NCBI RefSeq assembly: GCF_045037415.1 | Contig: NZ_CP173438.1 | Origin: Escherichia coli | GTDB lineage: Bacteria > Pseudomonadota > Gammaproteobacteria > Enterobacterales > Enterobacteriaceae | Direction: 5' to 3' (one strand) | DNA: 64,000 nt | Shown here: positions 1-64,000 of the stretch, piece after piece | Layout: each line of letters opens with the position of its first letter | Numbering within the stretch: the first letter of the stretch is position 1 | The notes under the pieces: model-generated | Database searches by the model: none | Seen by the model: only the letters and a program-made list of their open reading frames with translations | Told to the model about the DNA's origin: nothing | Program-made: the position numbers and the translations under genes

Positions 1-245
1 AACGGCAGCAACGTTTCAATCGGATGGTTACCGGTCGAGAACAGTTTTCCGTTATCGGTCGGCAAATAACGTTCGTCCGCGGCGATCACCAGAATTTTAT
101 GTTTACCGCGATACGGTTTTGGATAGTCCACGCCATCAAGATCAGAGACGGGACTCGTATATTGGCTAAGCGAATATTCTGAAGGGAAGAACGCATTATC
201 TTCAGCAATATCGACCTGCGGGTTTTTACTTGTTTGAACAGTCAT
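1..245 (-). CDS. hchA: Hsp31 glyoxalase/chaperone HchA, 5' part only (gene continues beyond window start)
   Basis: Minus-strand ORF with ATG at 243-245; N-terminus [38 protein letters not shown] recognised as HchA. Confidence 0.85.
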
Positions 246-837
246 AGTGTATTCCTTATTGTTGCTTAGTTAGGGTAGTCACTATATTTGCGACTGAGCT
301 GGTCGCTATTTTTAACCAGGCTGAAAAATTGAGTCAATATATCGAAAGCGGTAGTTGGCGGGCATAAGTATGTAATGATGATGCTGCACTGGTGTTGAAT
401 ATTATTCACGCCAAACTTTCCTTATTGAGTAACGTCGTCGCAAGTGGCCTCAATGATTTTAGACCATTATCAGAGGTTTGGGGGCGATGGGGAGAGATTT
501 AGTGCTGTGGAATGTTGTGGTACTGATGAATATTTATATCCCGGATTGGTAGGGAAAAAGTTTTTTTCATGCACTATTTTTGCAAATATTTCTATATGGG
601 AAGCGGTTTTGTTGCGGATTAATTCATAAAGAAATGCATTTGGGTGTTGGCTGGAAGAGACGCTGGTAGATTTTATTGAGCCAGGAGGGGCGGGGTAATG
701 TGCTGTATCGATATGCTTTGGCAATTGCGTGTGCCGCAGATGGAGATGAAATGCCAATAAAAAAGCCTGAGTTCGATGAGGGACGAACTCAGGCTGGTGT
801 TATGTTTTACAGTAACACGCCTCGGCGCGTTGGCTGA

Positions 838-1953
838 TTAGAACTGGTAGACGATACCAACTGCAAACTGGTCATCAGCTGCTGCGCCAGTAATGGCGGC
901 GTCATCTTTATCCAGCATGTTGAATTTGTATGCAGTATAAACGTTCATGTTCTTATTGAAGTAGTACCAGGTACCAACTTCAATGTAGTTCACACGGTCA
1001 GCGTCAACATATCTATGTCCAGGTACACCTTTGATATCTTTACCTTTAGAGTACACATAACCTAAGGACGGACGCAGACCAAAGTCGAATTGGTACTGAA
1101 CAACCGCTTCAAAGTTCTGGGTTTCATTGATAAGTTGATCACGCATTATTGTATTGCCTTCTTGATCGGCAACACCTGTATCAATAGAACCCGGAGTCAT
1201 ATTACGAGTTTCACCGTACATTACAGCTGCGTAGACATTGTTCGCGTCATACTTTGCAGCCAATGACCACAGTTCAGCATTTGAACCGTTTCCATCGGCA
1301 ACTTGATCGTTGGTGCGATCAGATTTGCTATATGCACCAACGATACCAAAACCATTGATGTTATAGTCTACAGACAACGCATAGCCGTCACCATTTTGTT
1401 TCTTAGTGCTACGGTTGCTGTTTTTGCCTTGGTACTGAATCGCAAAATCAAGACCATCAACCAGGCCAAAGAAATCAGAGTTACGGTAGGTTGCAACACC
1501 GTTGGTACGACCGTTCATGAAGTTGTCAGCGGAAGCCCAGGAATCGCCACCCCATTCAACTAACATATCGGTATAAGCTGCGGCATCATAAGCAACACCG
1601 TAGTTACGGCCATAGTCAAATGATCCTAACTCGTTATATTTCAAACCGGCGAAGGTTAAACGGGTTTTTTCTTGGTTTTCACCTTCAGGCTTGCTGGCGT
1701 CGAGGTTGTATTCAAACTGACCGAAACCAGTCAGTTCGCTGGTGATTTGGGTTTCACCTTTAACACCGAAACGAGCATAGGAGGTATCTTCGTTTTCGCT
1801 GTTATTATCATCAGTATTTGACCAGATGCGTTCGCCAACCATCTTGCCGTAAAAATCAACTTTATTGCCATTTTTATTATAAATTTCAGCCGCATTTGCT
1901 GCGCCAGCAACTAATAACGCCGGGACCAGCATTGCCAGAACTTTTCTTTTCAT
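838..1953 (-). CDS. yedS: OmpC/OmpF-family outer membrane porin, intact
   Basis: Signal peptide [21 protein letters not shown], porin-like beta-strand sequence and C-terminal ...AVGIVYQF; sits between hchA and yedR. ORF track start 2022 trimmed to the MKRK ATG. Confidence 0.85.
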
Positions 1954-2262
1954 TATGTATTCCCTTGTGATTATAATCTTCATGAATATATCAATAAGTG
2001 CTGTTATCCAAAAAAAGCACATTTGGATACTATTCTATGAAGTTCATTTTATTTTAAAGATTACATGTAACAAATGTATTTAAAAGATTTCAAAATGTTT
2101 CTAATCTATTTAATATAATTCATAGTTATGAATTCTGAATATAAATATTCACGAATATTATGGATATATATCAATATGTTATGAGTTGATCGAAAAAATA
2201 GGGAGTATCAATGATTGTTGCGCTAAACGGCTGGTGTGATCTCGCGCACATTAATGAAGGCA

Positions 2263-2288
2263 TAAAAAAAAGCCGGCATCATGCCGGC
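2263..2288 (-). terminator. Rho-independent terminator (minus strand)
   Basis: GCCGGCATGATGCCGGC hairpin followed by an 8-nt U-run when read on the minus strand; no protein gene lies upstream of it. Confidence 0.55.
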
Positions 2289-2360
2289 CCAAAAAATATA
2301 AACAAGACGATAAAAGGCTAATAACGGAGGCATGATGACACAGAAAAATAAAAAGGTATA
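2263..2360 (-). ncRNA. Candidate small RNA ending at the orphan terminator (position matches the RseX locus between yedS and yedR)
   Basis: Orphan minus-strand terminator in the yedS-yedR intergenic region; 5' end not determinable from sequence. Confidence 0.3.
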
Positions 2361-5555: not shown

Positions 5556-6464
5556 TGCATCCTGAATAACTGGCGCGACAACGGGTTTGGCCGGGAAGAG
5601 ATATTTTCCCAACGTGACCAGTACCACCGCGAAGACAATTACGCCGAGCGCCAGCCATTCAATCTTCGACAGCGTTTCGCCACCCAGTCCCGTACCCAGC
5701 AAGACCGCGACCACCGGGTTAACGTAGGCGTAGCTGGTGGCGAGAGCCGGACTGACGTTGCGGATTAAATACATATAAGCGTTAATGGCGATAATCGAAC
5801 CAAACAGCGCCAGATAGCCGACCGCAAGGAAGCCTGAAAGGGAAGGGAGCGCCGTCAGTTTTTCACCCGCAATCATCGACGCAATCATTAACACCACGCC
5901 AGCCGCCAGCATCTCAATCGCACCCGCCATCATCCCTACAGGTAAGGTAATGCGCGAGCCATAAACCGAGCCAAACGCCCAGCTAATCGAGCCGATTAAA
6001 ATCAGAATCGCGCCCCATGGATTGCCGCTTAAGTTTCCACCGCTATTGAGCATGATGATTCCGGCAAGCCCAATGGCGATACCCACCCATTCCAGTTTGC
6101 GCGTTTTAATGCCAAACAGGCGGCTGAAGCACAGGGTAAAAAGGGGCACGGTTGCAACCACTACGGCGGCGATGCCGGAAGGAACATTTTGATGTTCGGC
6201 AACCGTCACCATGCCATTACCGACAGCCAGCAATAACAGGCCAATCAGCGCGGCATTGAGCAGCGGACGTAGCGGGGGAAGTTTGTGTCCGCGCAGTAGC
6301 AAAAATGCCAGCAATAAAATACCGGCTGCCAGGAATCGAACGCCCGCCATCATTAACGGAGGCCAGCTTTCCACGCCAATCCGAATGACAAAATAGGTTG
6401 AGCCCCAAATGATATACAACGCAAACAGCGCGCCAAAAAGCGGTAACAACTGGCGGAAACGCAT
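5544..6464 (-). CDS. yedA: EamA/DMT-family transporter YedA
   Basis: About ten hydrophobic helices, 306 aa, conserved position after vsr. Confidence 0.9.
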   Translation of the reverse strand: MRFRQLLPLFGALFALYIIWGSTYFVIRIGVESWPPLMMAGVRFLAAGILLLAFLLLRGHKLPPLRPLLNAALIGLLLLAVGNGMVTVAEHQNVPSGIAAVVVATVPLFTLCFSRLFGIKTRKLEWVGIAIGLAGIIMLNSGGNLSGNPWGAILILIGSISWAFGSVYGSRITLPVGMMAGAIEMLAAGVVLMIASMIAGEKLTALPSLSGFLAVGYLALFGSIIAINAYMYLIRNVSPALATSYAYVNPVVAVLLGTGLGGETLSKIEWLALGVIVFAVVLVTLGKYLFPAKPVVAPVIQDASSE

Positions 6465-6636
6465 AATCCCTCACGGCTGAAATAAAAAGGTGGTTCATAG
6501 TAAACGTGAAAATCATTCTGCTGGCGAGAGATATAATTGCACTTGATTGTTAAATAAATGTTGACCTGTGAAGCAAGTATCAGAGCTGCCGTTTTTGCTT
6601 CATACTTACACCCTTCAACAATAAAAATGAGAGGGA

Positions 6637-7554
6637 ATGCTTTTGGCCGGGAGTAGTTTACTGACGTTGCTCGATGATATCGCCACACTGCTGGACGATA
6701 TCTCCGTGATGGGCAAACTGGCGGCGAAGAAAACCGCCGGTGTATTAGGGGATGACTTATCGCTCAATGCGCAACAAGTTTCAGGCGTGCGGGCCAACCG
6801 GGAACTTCCCGTGGTCTGGGGCGTGGCGAAAGGTTCGCTGATCAATAAAGTGATTCTGGTGCCGCTGGCGCTGATCATCAGTGCGTTTATCCCGTGGGCG
6901 ATTACGCCACTGTTGATGATTGGCGGCGCGTTTCTCTGCTTTGAAGGGGTAGAGAAAGTGCTGCATATGCTGGAGGCGCGTAAACATAAAGAAGATCCGG
7001 CGCAGAGTCAGCAGCGTCTGGAGAAGCTGGCGGCGCAGGATCCGCTGAAGTTTGAAAAGGACAAAATAAAAGGGGCGATTCGTACCGATTTTATATTGTC
7101 TGCGGAAATCGTCGCCATCACGCTGGGGATTGTGGCAGAAGCGCCGTTGCTTAATCAGGTGCTGGTGCTTTCAGGCATCGCGCTGGTAGTGACCGTGGGC
7201 GTCTACGGTCTGGTAGGGGTTATCGTTAAGATTGATGACCTGGGGTATTGGCTGGCGGAAAAATCCAGCGCGCTGATGCAGGCATTAGGTAAAGGGTTAT
7301 TGATCATTGCGCCCTGGTTGATGAAAGCGTTATCGATTGTCGGCACGCTGGCGATGTTCCTCGTCGGCGGCGGGATTGTGGTACATGGTATTGCGCCGTT
7401 GCATCACGCCATTGAACATTTCGCCGGGCAGCAAAGTGCAGTGGTGGCGATGATATTACCGACTGTTTTAAATCTGATTCTTGGATTTATCATCGGCGGC
7501 ATCGTGGTGCTGGGAGTGAAAGCCGTAGCGAAAATGCGCGGTCAGGCACATTAA
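6637..7554 (+). CDS. yedI: Inner membrane protein YedI
   Basis: 305-aa membrane protein in conserved context. Confidence 0.85.
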
Positions 7555-7632
7555 TACTCGCACAGGCTATTATGCAAAATTCGCCATCTTCAACTAAGGT
7601 GAACAAGTTTCACTCGAAAAAAGGAGGCGAGT

Positions 7633-7815
7633 ATGAGCTTTATGGTTAGTGAGGAAGTTACGGTTAAAGAGGGCGGCCCGCGGATGATTGTCACTGGATA
7701 CTCCAGCGGTATGGTTGAGTGTCGTTGGTATGACGGGTACGGGGTCAAGCGGGAAGCTTTTCATGAAACCGAGCTTGTTCCGGGGGAGGGGAGTCGTTCT
7801 GCGGAAGAAGTTTGA
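7633..7815 (+). CDS. yodC: Small protein YodC
   Basis: 60-aa ORF with RBS AAGGAGG upstream. Confidence 0.7.
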   Translation: MSFMVSEEVTVKEGGPRMIVTGYSSGMVECRWYDGYGVKREAFHETELVPGEGSRSAEEV

Positions 7816-7985
7816 AAGGGTATCATTAACACCAGGCCGGATCACATCCGGCCTGGTGTCCCAATGCCTGCAATGAATGATAGTCGCGTCTTATCATGCC
7901 ACCATTATAAAATTATCGCTGTTTTGCGGTACGCTATCGCCGGGTTATGCCAGAATCATAAAAAAGCAGGTTGGGAGTCGTCAGG

Positions 7986-10603
<2,618 letters not shown>

Positions 10604-23645: not shown

Positions 23646-23978
23646 ATGAACCCTTATATTTATCTTGGTGGCGCAATACTTGCAGAGGTCATTGGTACAA
23701 CCTTAATGAAGTTTTCAGAGGGGTTTACACGGTTATGGCCCTCTGTTGGCACAATTATTTGCTATTGTGCATCATTCTGGTTATTAGCTCAGACGCTGGC
23801 TTATATACCTACAGGGATTGCTTATGCTATCTGGTCAGGAGTCGGTATCGTTCTGATTAGTTTGCTTTCCTGGGGATTTTTTGGTCAACGACTGGACCTG
23901 CCAGCTATCATAGGCATGATGTTGATTTGTGCCGGTGTGTTAGTCATTAACTTGTTGTCACGAAGTGCACCGCATTAA
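23646..23978 (+). CDS. emrE: Small multidrug resistance (SMR) efflux protein EmrE
   Basis: 110 aa, four TM helices, MNPYIYLGGAILAEVIGTTLMKFSEGF...; essential Glu in TM1. Confidence 0.9.
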   Translation: MNPYIYLGGAILAEVIGTTLMKFSEGFTRLWPSVGTIICYCASFWLLAQTLAYIPTGIAYAIWSGVGIVLISLLSWGFFGQRLDLPAIIGMMLICAGVLVINLLSRSAPH

Positions 23979-24146
23979 AAAATAATTATCCTTGAGATAA
24001 CAGGAATCTGATTTGTGCATATTATGGCTAATGTTCGGGGCACCTTTATAATTATGATTGCATTTGCGCGATCATTGCGCCTTTATGCATAATGAGATCA
24101 AGGCACATCAAATAAAATAACGATAGGTCACAACAATGAGGTTTTT

Positions 24147-24698
24147 ATGAAAAAACTTATCGTTTCAAGTGTATTGGCATTCATAACATTTTCTGCGCAG
24201 GCCGCAGCATTTCAGGTCACTAGTAATGAAATAAAAACAGGAGAGCAACTTACAACGTCTCATGTATTTTCTGGATTTGGGTGTGAAGGTGGTAATACAT
24301 CGCCCTCATTAACCTGGTCTGGTGCTCCTGAAGGCACCAAAAGCTTTGCCGTAACTGTGTATGATCCAGATGCTCCTACAGGCAGTGGATGGTGGCACTG
24401 GACTGTTGCTAATATTCCAGCAACTGTAACATATTTGCCCGCTGATGCAGGAAGACGTGATGGTACAAAACTTCCGACTGGTGCTGTTCAAGGCCGAAAT
24501 GATTTTGGTTATGCAGGATTTGGTGGAGCATGTCCTCCCAAAGGAGATAAACCCCATCATTACCAGTTTAAAGTATGGGCTCTAAAAACTGATAAAATTC
24601 CTGTGGATTCTAATTCCAGCGGAGCGTTAGTTGGTTATATGCTTAATGCCAATAAAATTGCAACCGCTGAGATAACACCAGTTTATGAGATAAAGTAG
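24147..24698 (+). CDS. ybcL: Periplasmic PEBP/RKIP-family protein YbcL
   Basis: Signal peptide MKKLIVSSVLAFITFSAQA; PEBP-like motifs (DPDAP, GWWHW). Confidence 0.85.
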   Translation: MKKLIVSSVLAFITFSAQAAAFQVTSNEIKTGEQLTTSHVFSGFGCEGGNTSPSLTWSGAPEGTKSFAVTVYDPDAPTGSGWWHWTVANIPATVTYLPADAGRRDGTKLPTGAVQGRNDFGYAGFGGACPPKGDKPHHYQFKVWALKTDKIPVDSNSSGALVGYMLNANKIATAEITPVYEIK

Positions 24699-24707
24699 GG
24701 TAAGAGT

Positions 24708-25505
24708 ATGCTGGCAAAAGATAAGACTAACCTAAAGATTGAAGAAATACGGATGCATAAACATCATGAGATTCACAGGGTTAAGCCTCTTATGCCAGCT
24801 TTATGTCGTATCCGTCAGGGAAAAAAAGTTATCAATTGGGAGACGCATAGTCTAACTGTTGATAATAATCAGATAATATTATTTCCCTGTGGATATGAAT
24901 TTTATATTGCGAATTATCCAGAAGCAGGTCTTTATCTTGCAGAAATGCTTTGTTATCCCATTGATCTAATTGAAAAGTTTCAAAAATTTTATGCGATAAC
25001 TGATCAAATTCGTAACACGACAGGTTTCTGCTTACCTCAGAACCCCGAGTTAATATATTGTTGGGAGCAACTAAAAACATCTATTTCCCGAGGCTTCTCA
25101 ACGCAAATTCAGGAACACTTAGCAATGGGCGTTCTACTTTCATTAGGAGCACATCATGTTAATTGTTTACTTTTATCAGATAGTAAACAATCATTAATAA
25201 GTCGTTGTTATAACCTAATGCTATCCGAACCTGGAACAAAATGGACAGCAAACAAGGTAGCGAGATATCTCTACATTTCTGTTTCCACATTGCATCGCCG
25301 TCTGGCAAGCGAGGGAGTAAGTTTTCAAAGTATATTGGACGACGTGAGGTTAAATAATGCGTTGTCTGCTATACAAACGACAGTAAAACCCATCAGCGAG
25401 ATTGCCAGGGAAAATGGTTACAAGTGTCCTTCTCGTTTTACTGAAAGGTTCCATAATCGTTTTAAGATAACACCAAGAGAGCTAAGAAAAGCGTCCAGAG
25501 AGTAA
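24708..25505 (+). CDS. ybcM: AraC-family transcriptional regulator YbcM
   Basis: C-terminal AraC-type HTH; follows ybcL as in the DLP12 prophage. Confidence 0.8.
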
Positions 25506-25829
25506 AAGTATTTTATGAAGGAGCAACAGCATCGATTTTTATTTTGGAAAATAAATACGGCATACTCAACCTATTGGAGTCTGAACAATCCGGTGACTTC
25601 TGCGCTAATCGGGGACGTTTCTAAGCACATATAATTGATACTATCTTCCTCCATCACAATTTCAGAAATGCACGTGTGATTTTTTTGCATCCGGCGTTTG
25701 GACTATGTGGAGCTCAAGAGTGGGAAAGTTACAAGAGGTTGAGGGGATAATTAAAGGGATGCTTATGACATTAGATATCCGGTTAGGTACGGATATCGTT
25801 GTTATTAAATCTAGTTGATACGTTAAGAT

Positions 25830-26186
25830 GCAGCTACTGACAAAATAGCCAGGACTCCACAAAACGCCTTTGTCGTAATACCTGACTGCAATATCTGGTC
25901 GATCTCGTCGCAGTAACCTACTCGATACGCCTTTGAGGCTGTTTACCAGACTGGATATCGCCAGTTTGGGAGGATAGTTAATTAACAAATGGACGTGATC
26001 TGGTCCGCCATCCATTTCAACCCGTTCAGCTTCAAAATCAGCACATACATTTGAAAAGTAAGTGCGTAGTTTTTCTGTCGCGTCATGGTCAAAAATCTGA
26101 CGTCGGTATTTAGTAACGAAGACCAGGTGAACATGCTTCAGGAAAACACAATGCCTTCCGCGTCGGATATCGGTTTCTTTTTTCAT
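25830..26186 (-). pseudogene. tnpA: IS200/IS605 Y1 transposase TnpA, C-terminal region apparently replaced
   Basis: MKKETDIRRGRHCVFLKHVHLVFVTKYRRQIF...HVHLL (HuH motif) ...GYFVSSC; the ORF then continues into unrelated sequence, so the C-terminal catalytic-Tyr region seems missing. Confidence 0.6.
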
Positions 26187-26208
26187 AGGCCAAAGTATGA
26201 TTTGGCCC

Positions 26209-26493
26209 ATGAAACGACTACAGGCATTCAAATTCCGGTTAAGACCAGGTGGTCAACAGGAGCGTGGAATGAGGCGCTTCGCAGGCGCATGTCGTTTCGT
26301 TTTCAATCGTGCTCTGGCGCTTCAGAATGAGAATCATGAGGCCGGTAATAAATACATCCCTTACGGGAAAATGGCTTCCTGGTTGGTTGAGTGGAAAAAT
26401 GCCACTGAAACGCAATGGCTTAAAGATTCGCCCTCACAGCCATTGCAACAGTCACTGAAAGACCCTGAGCGGGCTTACAAAAACTTCTTCCGG
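26209..26493 (+). pseudogene. tnpB: TnpB (IS605 OrfB), N-terminal ~95-aa fragment only
   Basis: MKRLQAFKFRLRPGGQQERGMRRFAGACRFVFNRALA... typical TnpB N-terminus; RuvC-like and Zn-finger regions absent. Confidence 0.65.
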
Positions 26494-26917
26494 CTTCGTC
26501 ACCACGCTCAAACGGTGTGCTACCTATCGCGGCTATAAAAACAGCTTGTCCATCAGCACGATAGATAAAATAAGGCTGCTTTTTGTCGCCTTCTTTTTTC
26601 CACTCAAACCAGCCATCGGCAAAACAGATTGCCCGACCATGTTGCCAGAGCGGTTTAAACATGTGACTGGTTGCGGCAGTTTCTACGCGGGCGTTAATCA
26701 GCGGCGGTTTATCCCACCATCCGGGAGCATATCCCCAGAAAACCGGATCCAGATGAAGGTGTTCATCACGTTCACTGAGCAGAAGGACTTTGGTTCCCGG
26801 CGCGACGTTGTATCTGCCAATAGGTTCGGGATCGTAGGGAATATCGCGTTCAATATCTTCCGCGAGAAACGCGAGGTAATCTTCACGCGTTTGGGATTGG
26901 GCAAAGCGTCCACACAT
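26491..26917 (-). pseudogene. yedK: SRAP-domain protein YedK (abasic-site processing), 3'-truncated at the IS junction
   Basis: N-terminus MCGRFAQSQTREDYLAFLAEDIERDIPYDPEPIGRYNVAPG... with catalytic Cys2; homology ends after about 142 residues, then a short unrelated tail. Confidence 0.7.
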
Positions 26918-43998: not shown

Positions 43999-44074
<76 letters not shown>

Positions 44075-44127
44075 GTTTAAAAGGCATCGGCGTCAGCGGA
44101 TGTCTGGCTGAAAGGCCTGAAGAATTT

Positions 44128-44201
44128 GGCGCGTTAACAAAGCGGTTATGTAGCGGATTGCAAATCCGTCTAGTCCGGTTCGACTCCGGAACGCGCCTCC
44201 A
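44128..44201 (+). tRNA. cysT: tRNA-Cys (anticodon GCA)
   Basis: GGCGCGTTAACAAAGCGGTTATGTAGCGGATTGCAAATCCGTCTAGTCCGGTTCGACTCCGGAACGCGCCTCCA. Confidence 0.95.
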
Positions 44202-44213
44202 CTTTTTTCCCGA

Positions 44214-44300
44214 GCCCGGATGGTGGAATCGGTAGACACAAGGGATTTAAAATCCCTCGGCGTTCGCGCTGTGCGGGTTCAAGTCCCGCTCCGGGTACCA
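44214..44300 (+). tRNA. leuZ: tRNA-Leu (anticodon TAA), long variable arm
   Basis: GCCCGGATGGTGGAATCGGTAGACACAAGGGATTTAAAATCCCTCGGCGTTCGCGCTGTGCGGGTTCAAGTCCCGCTCCGGGTACCA. Confidence 0.95.
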
Positions 44301-44430: not shown

Positions 44431-45447
44431 TCATTTTCTCTGGCCACCAACTACGGGCACTACTTTAACTTTCCGGTCATATGCTGCTGTCTGTCGCGGG
44501 TTCTTATGCCCGGAAATTGCTTGCTTCTCTTCCAGGCTGCCTTCCAGATCAGAGATACCTTTTGCTTTCAGATCATGAAATGTGAAGTCTATTTGCAGAT
44601 GAGGATATTTTTCCTGTGCTGCCGCTTTGACATCACGCCAACGAGAGTTAAAACCATCACGGGTATACTTGCCACCGGTAGTTTGATGAATCACAAACAG
44701 GCTACTGATTCCCGTTTTTAATGGCAGAGAACGAGCCAGAGCTATCGCTTTCTGCAGACGAGGCGACCAGGCTTTGATTTGCTTAACGCCGGTTTTTCCC
44801 TGACGAATGTAGATCCCGGAATCGAACAGCTGGTCTTTCTGCAATGAAAGTACATCACTCTGTCTGGCCACGCATAAGTAGGCAATCTCCATTGCTACGC
44901 GAACAACATCAGGAGACACTTCATAAACGGCCTGATATTCTTCATCCGTAATATAACGTTCGCGAGCTTTCTCTTTAAACTGTTTAACTCCCTGACAAGG
45001 ATTCCTCTGAACATAACCTCGTTCATAACCCCAACGGAATACCCGGGACATAAAGCTTTTTTCCCTGTTTGCCTGAGTTCGGCTTGATAAACCGCGTTGA
45101 TCCATATAGCGCCGAATATGTTCAGGTTTGATTTTATCCGGGTCGATCTTCCCGAAGACAGGCAGAACTTTTCCGGAATATTTTGTGTAGTCTTTCCGGG
45201 TTTCGACTGCCAAATCCATAAAATCAGGGGAGGTCATGAATTGTTCCGTGAGCGCCTGAAAAGTATTTCTTTCTTTTTCGTCACCGACCGCTTTTTCATA
45301 TGCCAGCCATACGGCTGATCGTGGTGCATCCAATGCGCACAGGCGTATCGCTTTGTTATCTTTATTCCTGAATTCGTAGGCCGCTTTGCCCTGGTAAACA
45401 CGAGGCGGCATCCAGTTATCTGCTGGGTTCTTTCTCTTTCCGGCCAT
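44431..45447 (-). CDS. int: Phage tyrosine integrase (lambda Int family)
   Basis: C-terminal catalytic region ...HDLKAKGISD...ISGHKNPRQTAAYDRK...; N-terminus MAGKRKNPADNWMPPRVY resembles the lambda Int arm-binding start; start codon ambiguous (45447 or 45477). Confidence 0.85.
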   Translation of the reverse strand: MAGKRKNPADNWMPPRVYQGKAAYEFRNKDNKAIRLCALDAPRSAVWLAYEKAVGDEKERNTFQALTEQFMTSPDFMDLAVETRKDYTKYSGKVLPVFGKIDPDKIKPEHIRRYMDQRGLSSRTQANREKSFMSRVFRWGYERGYVQRNPCQGVKQFKEKARERYITDEEYQAVYEVSPDVVRVAMEIAYLCVARQSDVLSLQKDQLFDSGIYIRQGKTGVKQIKAWSPRLQKAIALARSLPLKTGISSLFVIHQTTGGKYTRDGFNSRWRDVKAAAQEKYPHLQIDFTFHDLKAKGISDLEGSLEEKQAISGHKNPRQTAAYDRKVKVVPVVGGQRK

Positions 45448-63962: not shown

Positions 63963-64000
63963 TGAGTAACGAGTATTTATTGGAATATACCCGCATAAAA

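Follow-up and report, generated by a model that had tools for sequence, protein, structure and literature searches.

The best-described relatives of the porin treated here are the general porins of the enterobacterial outer membrane. By sequence and by fold the closest proteins of solved structure are OmpK35 of Klebsiella pneumoniae (PDB 5o77 and 9hn1) and Omp35 of Enterobacter aerogenes (PDB 5o78), and many ESBL-producing Klebsiella strains have lost OmpK35 (PMC4048246). Escherichia coli K-12 OmpF, encoded at the asnS-aspC locus, is a member of the same family with the same fold. By chromosomal position the counterpart is the K-12 gene yedS (b4496, NC_000913.3 2034051-2035243), which is annotated as a pseudogene. 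A functional YedS has nevertheless been published from a clinical isolate in work on carbapenem resistance (Warner et al. 2013, Antimicrob Agents Chemother 57:1935, as that work is cited in PMC4048246). Below we describe an intact gene at the yedS position of another E. coli chromosome and compare its product with each of these proteins.

The stretch of DNA analyzed (the window) is 64 kb in length and is 99.994% identical to, and collinear with, a segment of the chromosome of ST131 strain JJ1887 (NZ_CP014316.1 2067752-2131751, reverse complement), from which it differs by two mismatches and two gaps. Positions 700-2250 of the window are 100% identical to many ST131 genomes. The porin gene occupies 838..1953 on the minus strand (371 codons plus stop, with the ATG at 1953-1951 and the TAA at 840-838). 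Its neighbors are hchA (1-243, minus strand) and, in tandem and directly upstream, the gene of the Hfq-binding small RNA RseX (2265..2354, minus strand; Rfam RF01401, 93.8 bits), which has its own terminator (2290->2270). The gene order hchA, porin, rseX, drpB, yedJ, dcm, vsr is that of K-12. An initial annotation made from the nucleotide sequence had described an intact 371-residue ORF in a non-K-12 background, and both statements held: coordinates and length were exact, and the match to JJ1887 places the DNA in ST131. Translation of the minus strand gave a single stop, the terminal TAA at 838-840, and neither translation nor alignment revealed an internal stop or a frameshift in 838-1953 of the window copy. 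The gene is already annotated and common (about 900 of the 5,426 complete genomes). In identical genomes the RefSeq coding sequence WP_000824383.1, the "porin" of ST131 genomes, is the same 1116 nucleotides.

The ATG at 1953 was taken as the start codon because it lies 6 nt downstream of a Shine-Dalgarno sequence, AAGGGAA (1960..1966, minus strand), because it opens a signal peptide common to the homologues and because the RefSeq coding sequence has the same length. A longer ORF beginning at an ATG at 2022 was rejected, as its 23 added residues have no homologue. The signal peptide (codons 1-21; 1891..1953, minus strand) aligns with the known cleavage site of OmpF, OmpC, and PhoE, with cleavage before AEIYNK. 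Within the mature protein, alignment places the loop-3 constriction motif VEWGGD at residues 132-137 (1543..1560, minus strand) and an extended surface loop at residues 254-275 (1129..1194, minus strand). By alignment to OmpF the latter is loop 6; it is longer by about 14 residues than in the closest E. coli sub-class, a protein of 357 residues. The coding sequence is followed, 43 nt past the stop codon, by an intrinsic terminator (755..795, minus strand) in which a 12-bp stem with seven G-C pairs (hairpin 795->764) precedes TTTTTT.

The window protein matches the Pfam family Porin_1 (PF00267) at 397.2 bits (cut-off 23.7; E 9e-119), the match extending over residues 27-371 and over the entire profile (positions 1-337 of 337). 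A search of the PDB sequences gave end-to-end matches to OmpK35 (491 bits, E 2.5e-146) and to OmpF (399 bits). An AlphaFold2 model built with 33 homologues was of moderate confidence (pLDDT 72, pTM 0.70, with loop 3 below 50) and is a beta-barrel, for which the top Foldseek matches were OmpK35 and E. aerogenes Omp35 (TM 0.80/0.88); OmpK35, Omp35, and OmpF were all retrieved at E 1e-38 to 1e-39 with TM values of 0.77-0.89. The OmpF constriction is lined by the basic residues K16, R42, R82, and R132 and by the loop-3 acidic residues D113, E117, and D121, and in the alignment all seven are kept. The C-terminal phenylalanine is likewise conserved, the protein ending in YQF. By these family and structure comparisons the product of the window gene is a general diffusion porin of the OmpF/OmpC/PhoE family. 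From what is known of that family, the precursor would be exported by Sec and cleaved after ANA, and BAM would insert the mature protein by way of its C-terminal phenylalanine. The product would then be a trimer of 16-stranded, water-filled channels narrowed by loop 3, through which small hydrophilic solutes, including beta-lactams, would pass the outer membrane.

Within the family the protein is not readily assigned to any of the named subfamilies, as it reached none of the NCBIfam equivalog cut-offs. The best-scoring model was that for OmpF (NF007446), at 450.7 bits against a cut-off of 583, followed by those for the OmpC subfamily (NF007841; 416.6 against 484) and PhoE (415.8 against 599). 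Identity to OmpF, OmpC, PhoE, and OmpN is 57-60%. OmpF, at 59-60%, shares the fold and the constriction residues but is encoded at another locus.

Expression of the gene is probably low and conditional. We infer this from two features of its surroundings, the AT-rich upstream region and the H-NS silencing of the neighboring rseX gene. The intergenic region in which a promoter is expected (1954..2264, minus strand; 311 nt) is only 26.7% G+C, and a promoter scan upstream of the porin gene gave five sigma-70-like matches at 9 of 12 positions where 6.2 were expected, none standing above chance. The rseX gene is repressed by H-NS in K-12 (PMC8313858). On the account attributed to Warner and colleagues in 2013, YedS expression reportedly depends on MarA acting through MicF. 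When nucleotides 1-33 of MicF were set against the shared yedS translation-initiation region, the predicted energy was -7.7 kcal/mol (z +1.2); the value for ompF, the positive control, was -27.1 kcal/mol (z -4.5). Hence, pairing was predicted for the positive control but no direct MicF duplex was predicted at the yedS translation-initiation region, and the reported control by MicF is therefore not explained by pairing at that site here.

The gene has also been lost from several genomes. In NZ_CP184097.1 (strain AZ 186) and NZ_CM190155.1 (strain 20409) the match over about 900-1850 is split by an annotated IS1 transposase of about 776 bp, although both genomes are otherwise 100% identical here, and thus some ST131 genomes carry IS1 inside the porin gene. 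The O157:H7 strain F6321 (locus L008, 735-1921 and 2572-2819) has an allele of the K-12 type with a frameshift of its own that is independent of the K-12 lesions; in this strain drpB, beside the porin gene, is also annotated as frameshifted. These insertions, together with the losses in K-12 and O157:H7, indicate that the porin gene is dispensable. It could then be argued that the reading frame is intact but that the gene is cryptic, silenced by H-NS as other quiescent porins are and idle in normal growth, so that its intactness would reflect the recent ancestry of ST131 rather than selection. The G+C-poor upstream region with no convincing promoter match, the repression of the adjacent rseX, and the losses by nonsense mutation, frameshift, and IS1 in several lineages are all as such an explanation would have them. 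We nonetheless consider it doubtful. Genes of the same class are intact in five genera at the same site with the pore-lining residues kept, and intact genes of every class found at the site are widespread. Moreover, the YedS published from a clinical isolate, as cited in PMC4048246, was functional, and the proteome of a wild STEC strain contained a porin with "50% homology" to K-12 YedS (PMC9731836). This last observation suggests that classes of yedS other than that of K-12 may be expressed in wild strains.

The nearest relatives of the window protein outside E. coli are porins of Escherichia fergusonii (85% identical), Citrobacter (78%), Enterobacter hormaechei (77%), and Klebsiella oxytoca (about 70%). 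All are encoded in the same context, yedA-vsr-dcm-yedJ-(drpB)-porin, and share with the window protein the VEWGGD motif and the same or nearly the same signal peptide, with clade support of 88-99%. They differ in being the orthologues of their own species, and databases call them "porin" or "outer membrane pore protein F"; we found no experimental characterization of these dcm-adjacent porins in the searchable literature. In a neighbor-joining tree of mature sequences (200 bootstraps) the VEWGGD clade, composed of the window protein, the dcm-adjacent porins, and OmpK35, had 98% support. Judged by synteny and by this tree, the window allele is a member of a conserved dcm-adjacent porin lineage of the enterobacteria, not a recent import.

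Recent horizontal transfer of an OmpK35/OmpF-type gene from Klebsiella or Enterobacter might have been thought to account for the G+C content of the coding sequence (43.6%, against 49% for the window) and for the finding that the best match of solved structure is a K. pneumoniae protein. Such an origin is very improbable, however. OmpK35 shares the VEWGGD motif and the pore charges, but its identity to the window protein is only about 63-65%, its signal peptide is of the OmpF type and its gene lies at the pncB-asnS/aspC (ompF) locus. The window protein, by contrast, is a product of the dcm-yedJ-drpB locus, and its loop 6 is the longer of the two. Its closest relatives instead come from this same position in E. 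coli and E. fergusonii (85-92% identical), and the flanks are native E. coli DNA with no mobile element beside the porin gene. Among the best 120 matches no gene more than 95% identical was found outside Escherichia.

Comparison with K-12 yedS gave a divided picture. The initial annotation had given yedS as disrupted in the laboratory strain and had proposed alignment to the K-12 fragments as a check. When this was done the lesions were found in the K-12 copy and no frameshift was found in the window copy. Relative to the intact allele of its own class in strain MRSN346355, codon 162 of K-12 yedS has become a nonsense codon (CAG->TAG), and a 1-nt deletion follows about 175 nt further on. The two genes share their position between hchA and rseX-drpB, and in 60-nt windows starting at 2131 down to 1953 (about 2131-1894) they are 97-100% identical, the start codon and signal peptide being identical throughout. 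Beyond the signal peptide the resemblance is that of two general porins. K-12 YedS, when repaired (397 residues), is 54% (BLASTP) or 60% (MAFFT) identical to the window protein, the same level as that seen with OmpF, OmpC, PhoE, and OmpN. Identity of the repaired protein to OmpN is 72%, its top match in the PDB is OmpK37 (494 bits) and, at 543.6 bits, it passes the NCBIfam OmpC-subfamily cut-off. Its loop-3 motif is PEFGGD, as in OmpF, OmpC, PhoE, and OmpN, whereas VEWGGD is found in the window protein, its E. coli relatives of classes A and B (defined below), and OmpK35. The neighbor-joining tree contains a split with 100% support, on one side of which are the window allele with its E. coli relatives, the dcm-adjacent porins of other genera, and OmpK35, and on the other OmpF, PhoE, OmpC, OmpN, and K-12 YedS with its relatives. 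This is the deepest division among the E. coli porins in the tree, and it separates the window protein from K-12 YedS.

The notion that the window gene is simply the wild-type, orthologous allele of K-12 yedS, separated from it by a few mutations and the two K-12 lesions, agrees with the shared position, the identical upstream region, 5' UTR and signal peptide, and the nearly identical 3' flank, but on the identity figures and the tree it is already refuted, since the intact K-12-class proteins that do exist (393-397 residues) are 90-92% identical to K-12 YedS and unlike the 371-residue window protein, which differs from that class in motif, NCBIfam behavior, and branch. As compared here, then, the window gene is a match to K-12 yedS by position and not as an orthologous mature protein. 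The statement that yedS reads through in this chromosome consequently stands in that an intact gene occupies the locus, but not in that the protein encoded is the one that K-12 has lost. The intact gene had also been offered as a mark of a non-K-12 strain. Although the background was correctly recognized, the marker is a weak one: exact 61-mers over the two lesions were found in 357 and 371 complete genomes out of 5,426 (about 360), the carriers sampled were nearly all laboratory K-12 derivatives (e.g., MG1655, DH10B, C600, BW25113, and MC4100), and intact classes are normal elsewhere. Intactness as such only confirms a non-K-12 (here ST131) chromosome.

The locus was matched in 4,890 of the 5,426 complete E. 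coli genomes, and the porins encoded there sort into classes. Class A, annotated "porin", consists of the window type of 371 residues and the sub-class of 357 residues, which is 90-92% identical to it, and was found in 1,626 of the 5,426 genomes; the mature region of the window type itself, at 95% identity or above, is present in 902. Class B proteins have 352 residues and the VEWGGD motif and are 67-68% identical to the window protein. Class C is the K-12 type (393-397 residues), present in 1,662 genomes and annotated "porin OmpC"; other database names for its members are "outer membrane protein yedS", "S1", and "N". Class D proteins have 387 residues and the motif PVFGGD. Intact class C proteins are very common in E. 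coli, Shigella, and Escherichia albertii, and among the 120 matches listed in the homologous-protein search no class C relative was found outside Escherichia and Shigella. With intact and disrupted copies of each class judged on a sample of genomes, an intact gene at the yedS position is the rule and K-12 the exception.

The differences between classes are confined to one segment of the gene. In 60-nt windows the sequence is 88-100% identical to every other allele from rseX to about codon 22, a stretch that contains the signal peptide, which is identical in all allele classes of the locus. Identity is again 88-100% from the last seven or so codons through the terminator towards hchA. Between these conserved arms, over the segment encoding the mature porin (860..1890, minus strand, with approximate boundaries), nucleotide identity drops to 10-80%. 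Strains MS1170 and MRSN346355 illustrate the pattern well. Their flanks are about 100% identical to the window, and the HchA protein accession of JJ1887 recurs in MS1170 and its DrpB accession in both strains, whereas their porins are only 68% and 60% identical, respectively, to the window protein. Such near-identical flanks with a divergent porin between them argue that the mature segment was replaced by recombination. The segment would be swapped by homologous recombination between the two arms, one comprising the promoter, the 5' UTR, and the signal peptide and the other the last codons and the terminator.

We conclude, with a probability of roughly 85%, that the window gene is an intact allele encoding an OmpK35-like porin, that the K-12 pseudogene represents a separate class resembling OmpN and OmpC and that the segment distinguishing them has been swapped by recombination. 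A broader interpretation, which we offer tentatively and with slightly less than even confidence, is that the yedS site is a cassette-like hypervariable porin locus at which at least four deep classes belonging to two ancient clades, one OmpK35-like with VEWGGD and the other OmpN-like with PEFGGD, share a promoter, 5' UTR, and signal peptide and are exchanged through recombination between the conserved arms, possibly under balancing selection. If there is such selection, its agents could be phages, colicins, antibodies, or antibiotics. We found no description of allele dimorphism or cassette exchange at the yedS position in the searchable literature, which is thin on subscription journals.

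Another possible source of the classes, an ancestral tandem pair of porin genes, was considered and rejected. In E. fergusonii (locus L019) a second porin gene of 369 codons (5663-6772) and a TrkH-family gene (7231-8688) lie between the dcm-adjacent porin gene and hchA. The signal peptide of this second porin is unrelated, its identity to every class is only 53-65% (63% to the class C protein of MRSN346355), and in the tree it lies on the side of OmpC and OmpN but joins none of the allele classes. A separate observation concerns OmpK35. Its gene occupies the ompF slot and its signal peptide is OmpF-like, whereas in its mature part it groups with the VEWGGD porins encoded next to dcm and not with E. 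coli OmpF. This arrangement may point to a more general exchange of mature domains between porin loci.

Several other features of the window may be recorded. Between fliE and yedF (about 23646-26917) the JJ1887 annotation gives emrE, ybcL, and ybcM, which in K-12 are genes of the DLP12 prophage, and the same stretch contains an IS200/IS605 tnpA gene (25662-26186) and a truncated gene for an SOS-response-associated peptidase (26492-26917). The fliC gene (about 33114-34163) encodes, by the same annotation, a short flagellin of 349 residues, presumably the H4 flagellin that an O25b:H4 ST131 strain should have. The gene is a classic case of conserved ends around a variable middle, as in the porin gene. 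A prophage beginning at about 44431 adjoins a tRNA-Gly/Cys/Leu cluster (about 43999-44300) and runs past the end of the window at 64000; it encodes an integrase (about 44431-45447), a replicative helicase, a YdaT-family toxin, and an antiterminator Q.

The name yedS thus denotes a chromosomal slot rather than a single protein. It follows that results obtained with one yedS allele, whether the clinical YedS linked to carbapenem resistance or the K-12 pseudogene, are not transferable to ST131 unless the allele class is checked. The ST131 porin could act as a variable surface antigen or as a phage receptor. If the cassette interpretation is correct, ST131 and other B2 strains carry an additional channel of the OmpF class that is ignored by models of permeability based on K-12. 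As OmpK35 is the porin lost from many ESBL-producing Klebsiella, its OmpK35-like counterpart in ST131 could matter for drug entry when both OmpF and OmpC have been lost.
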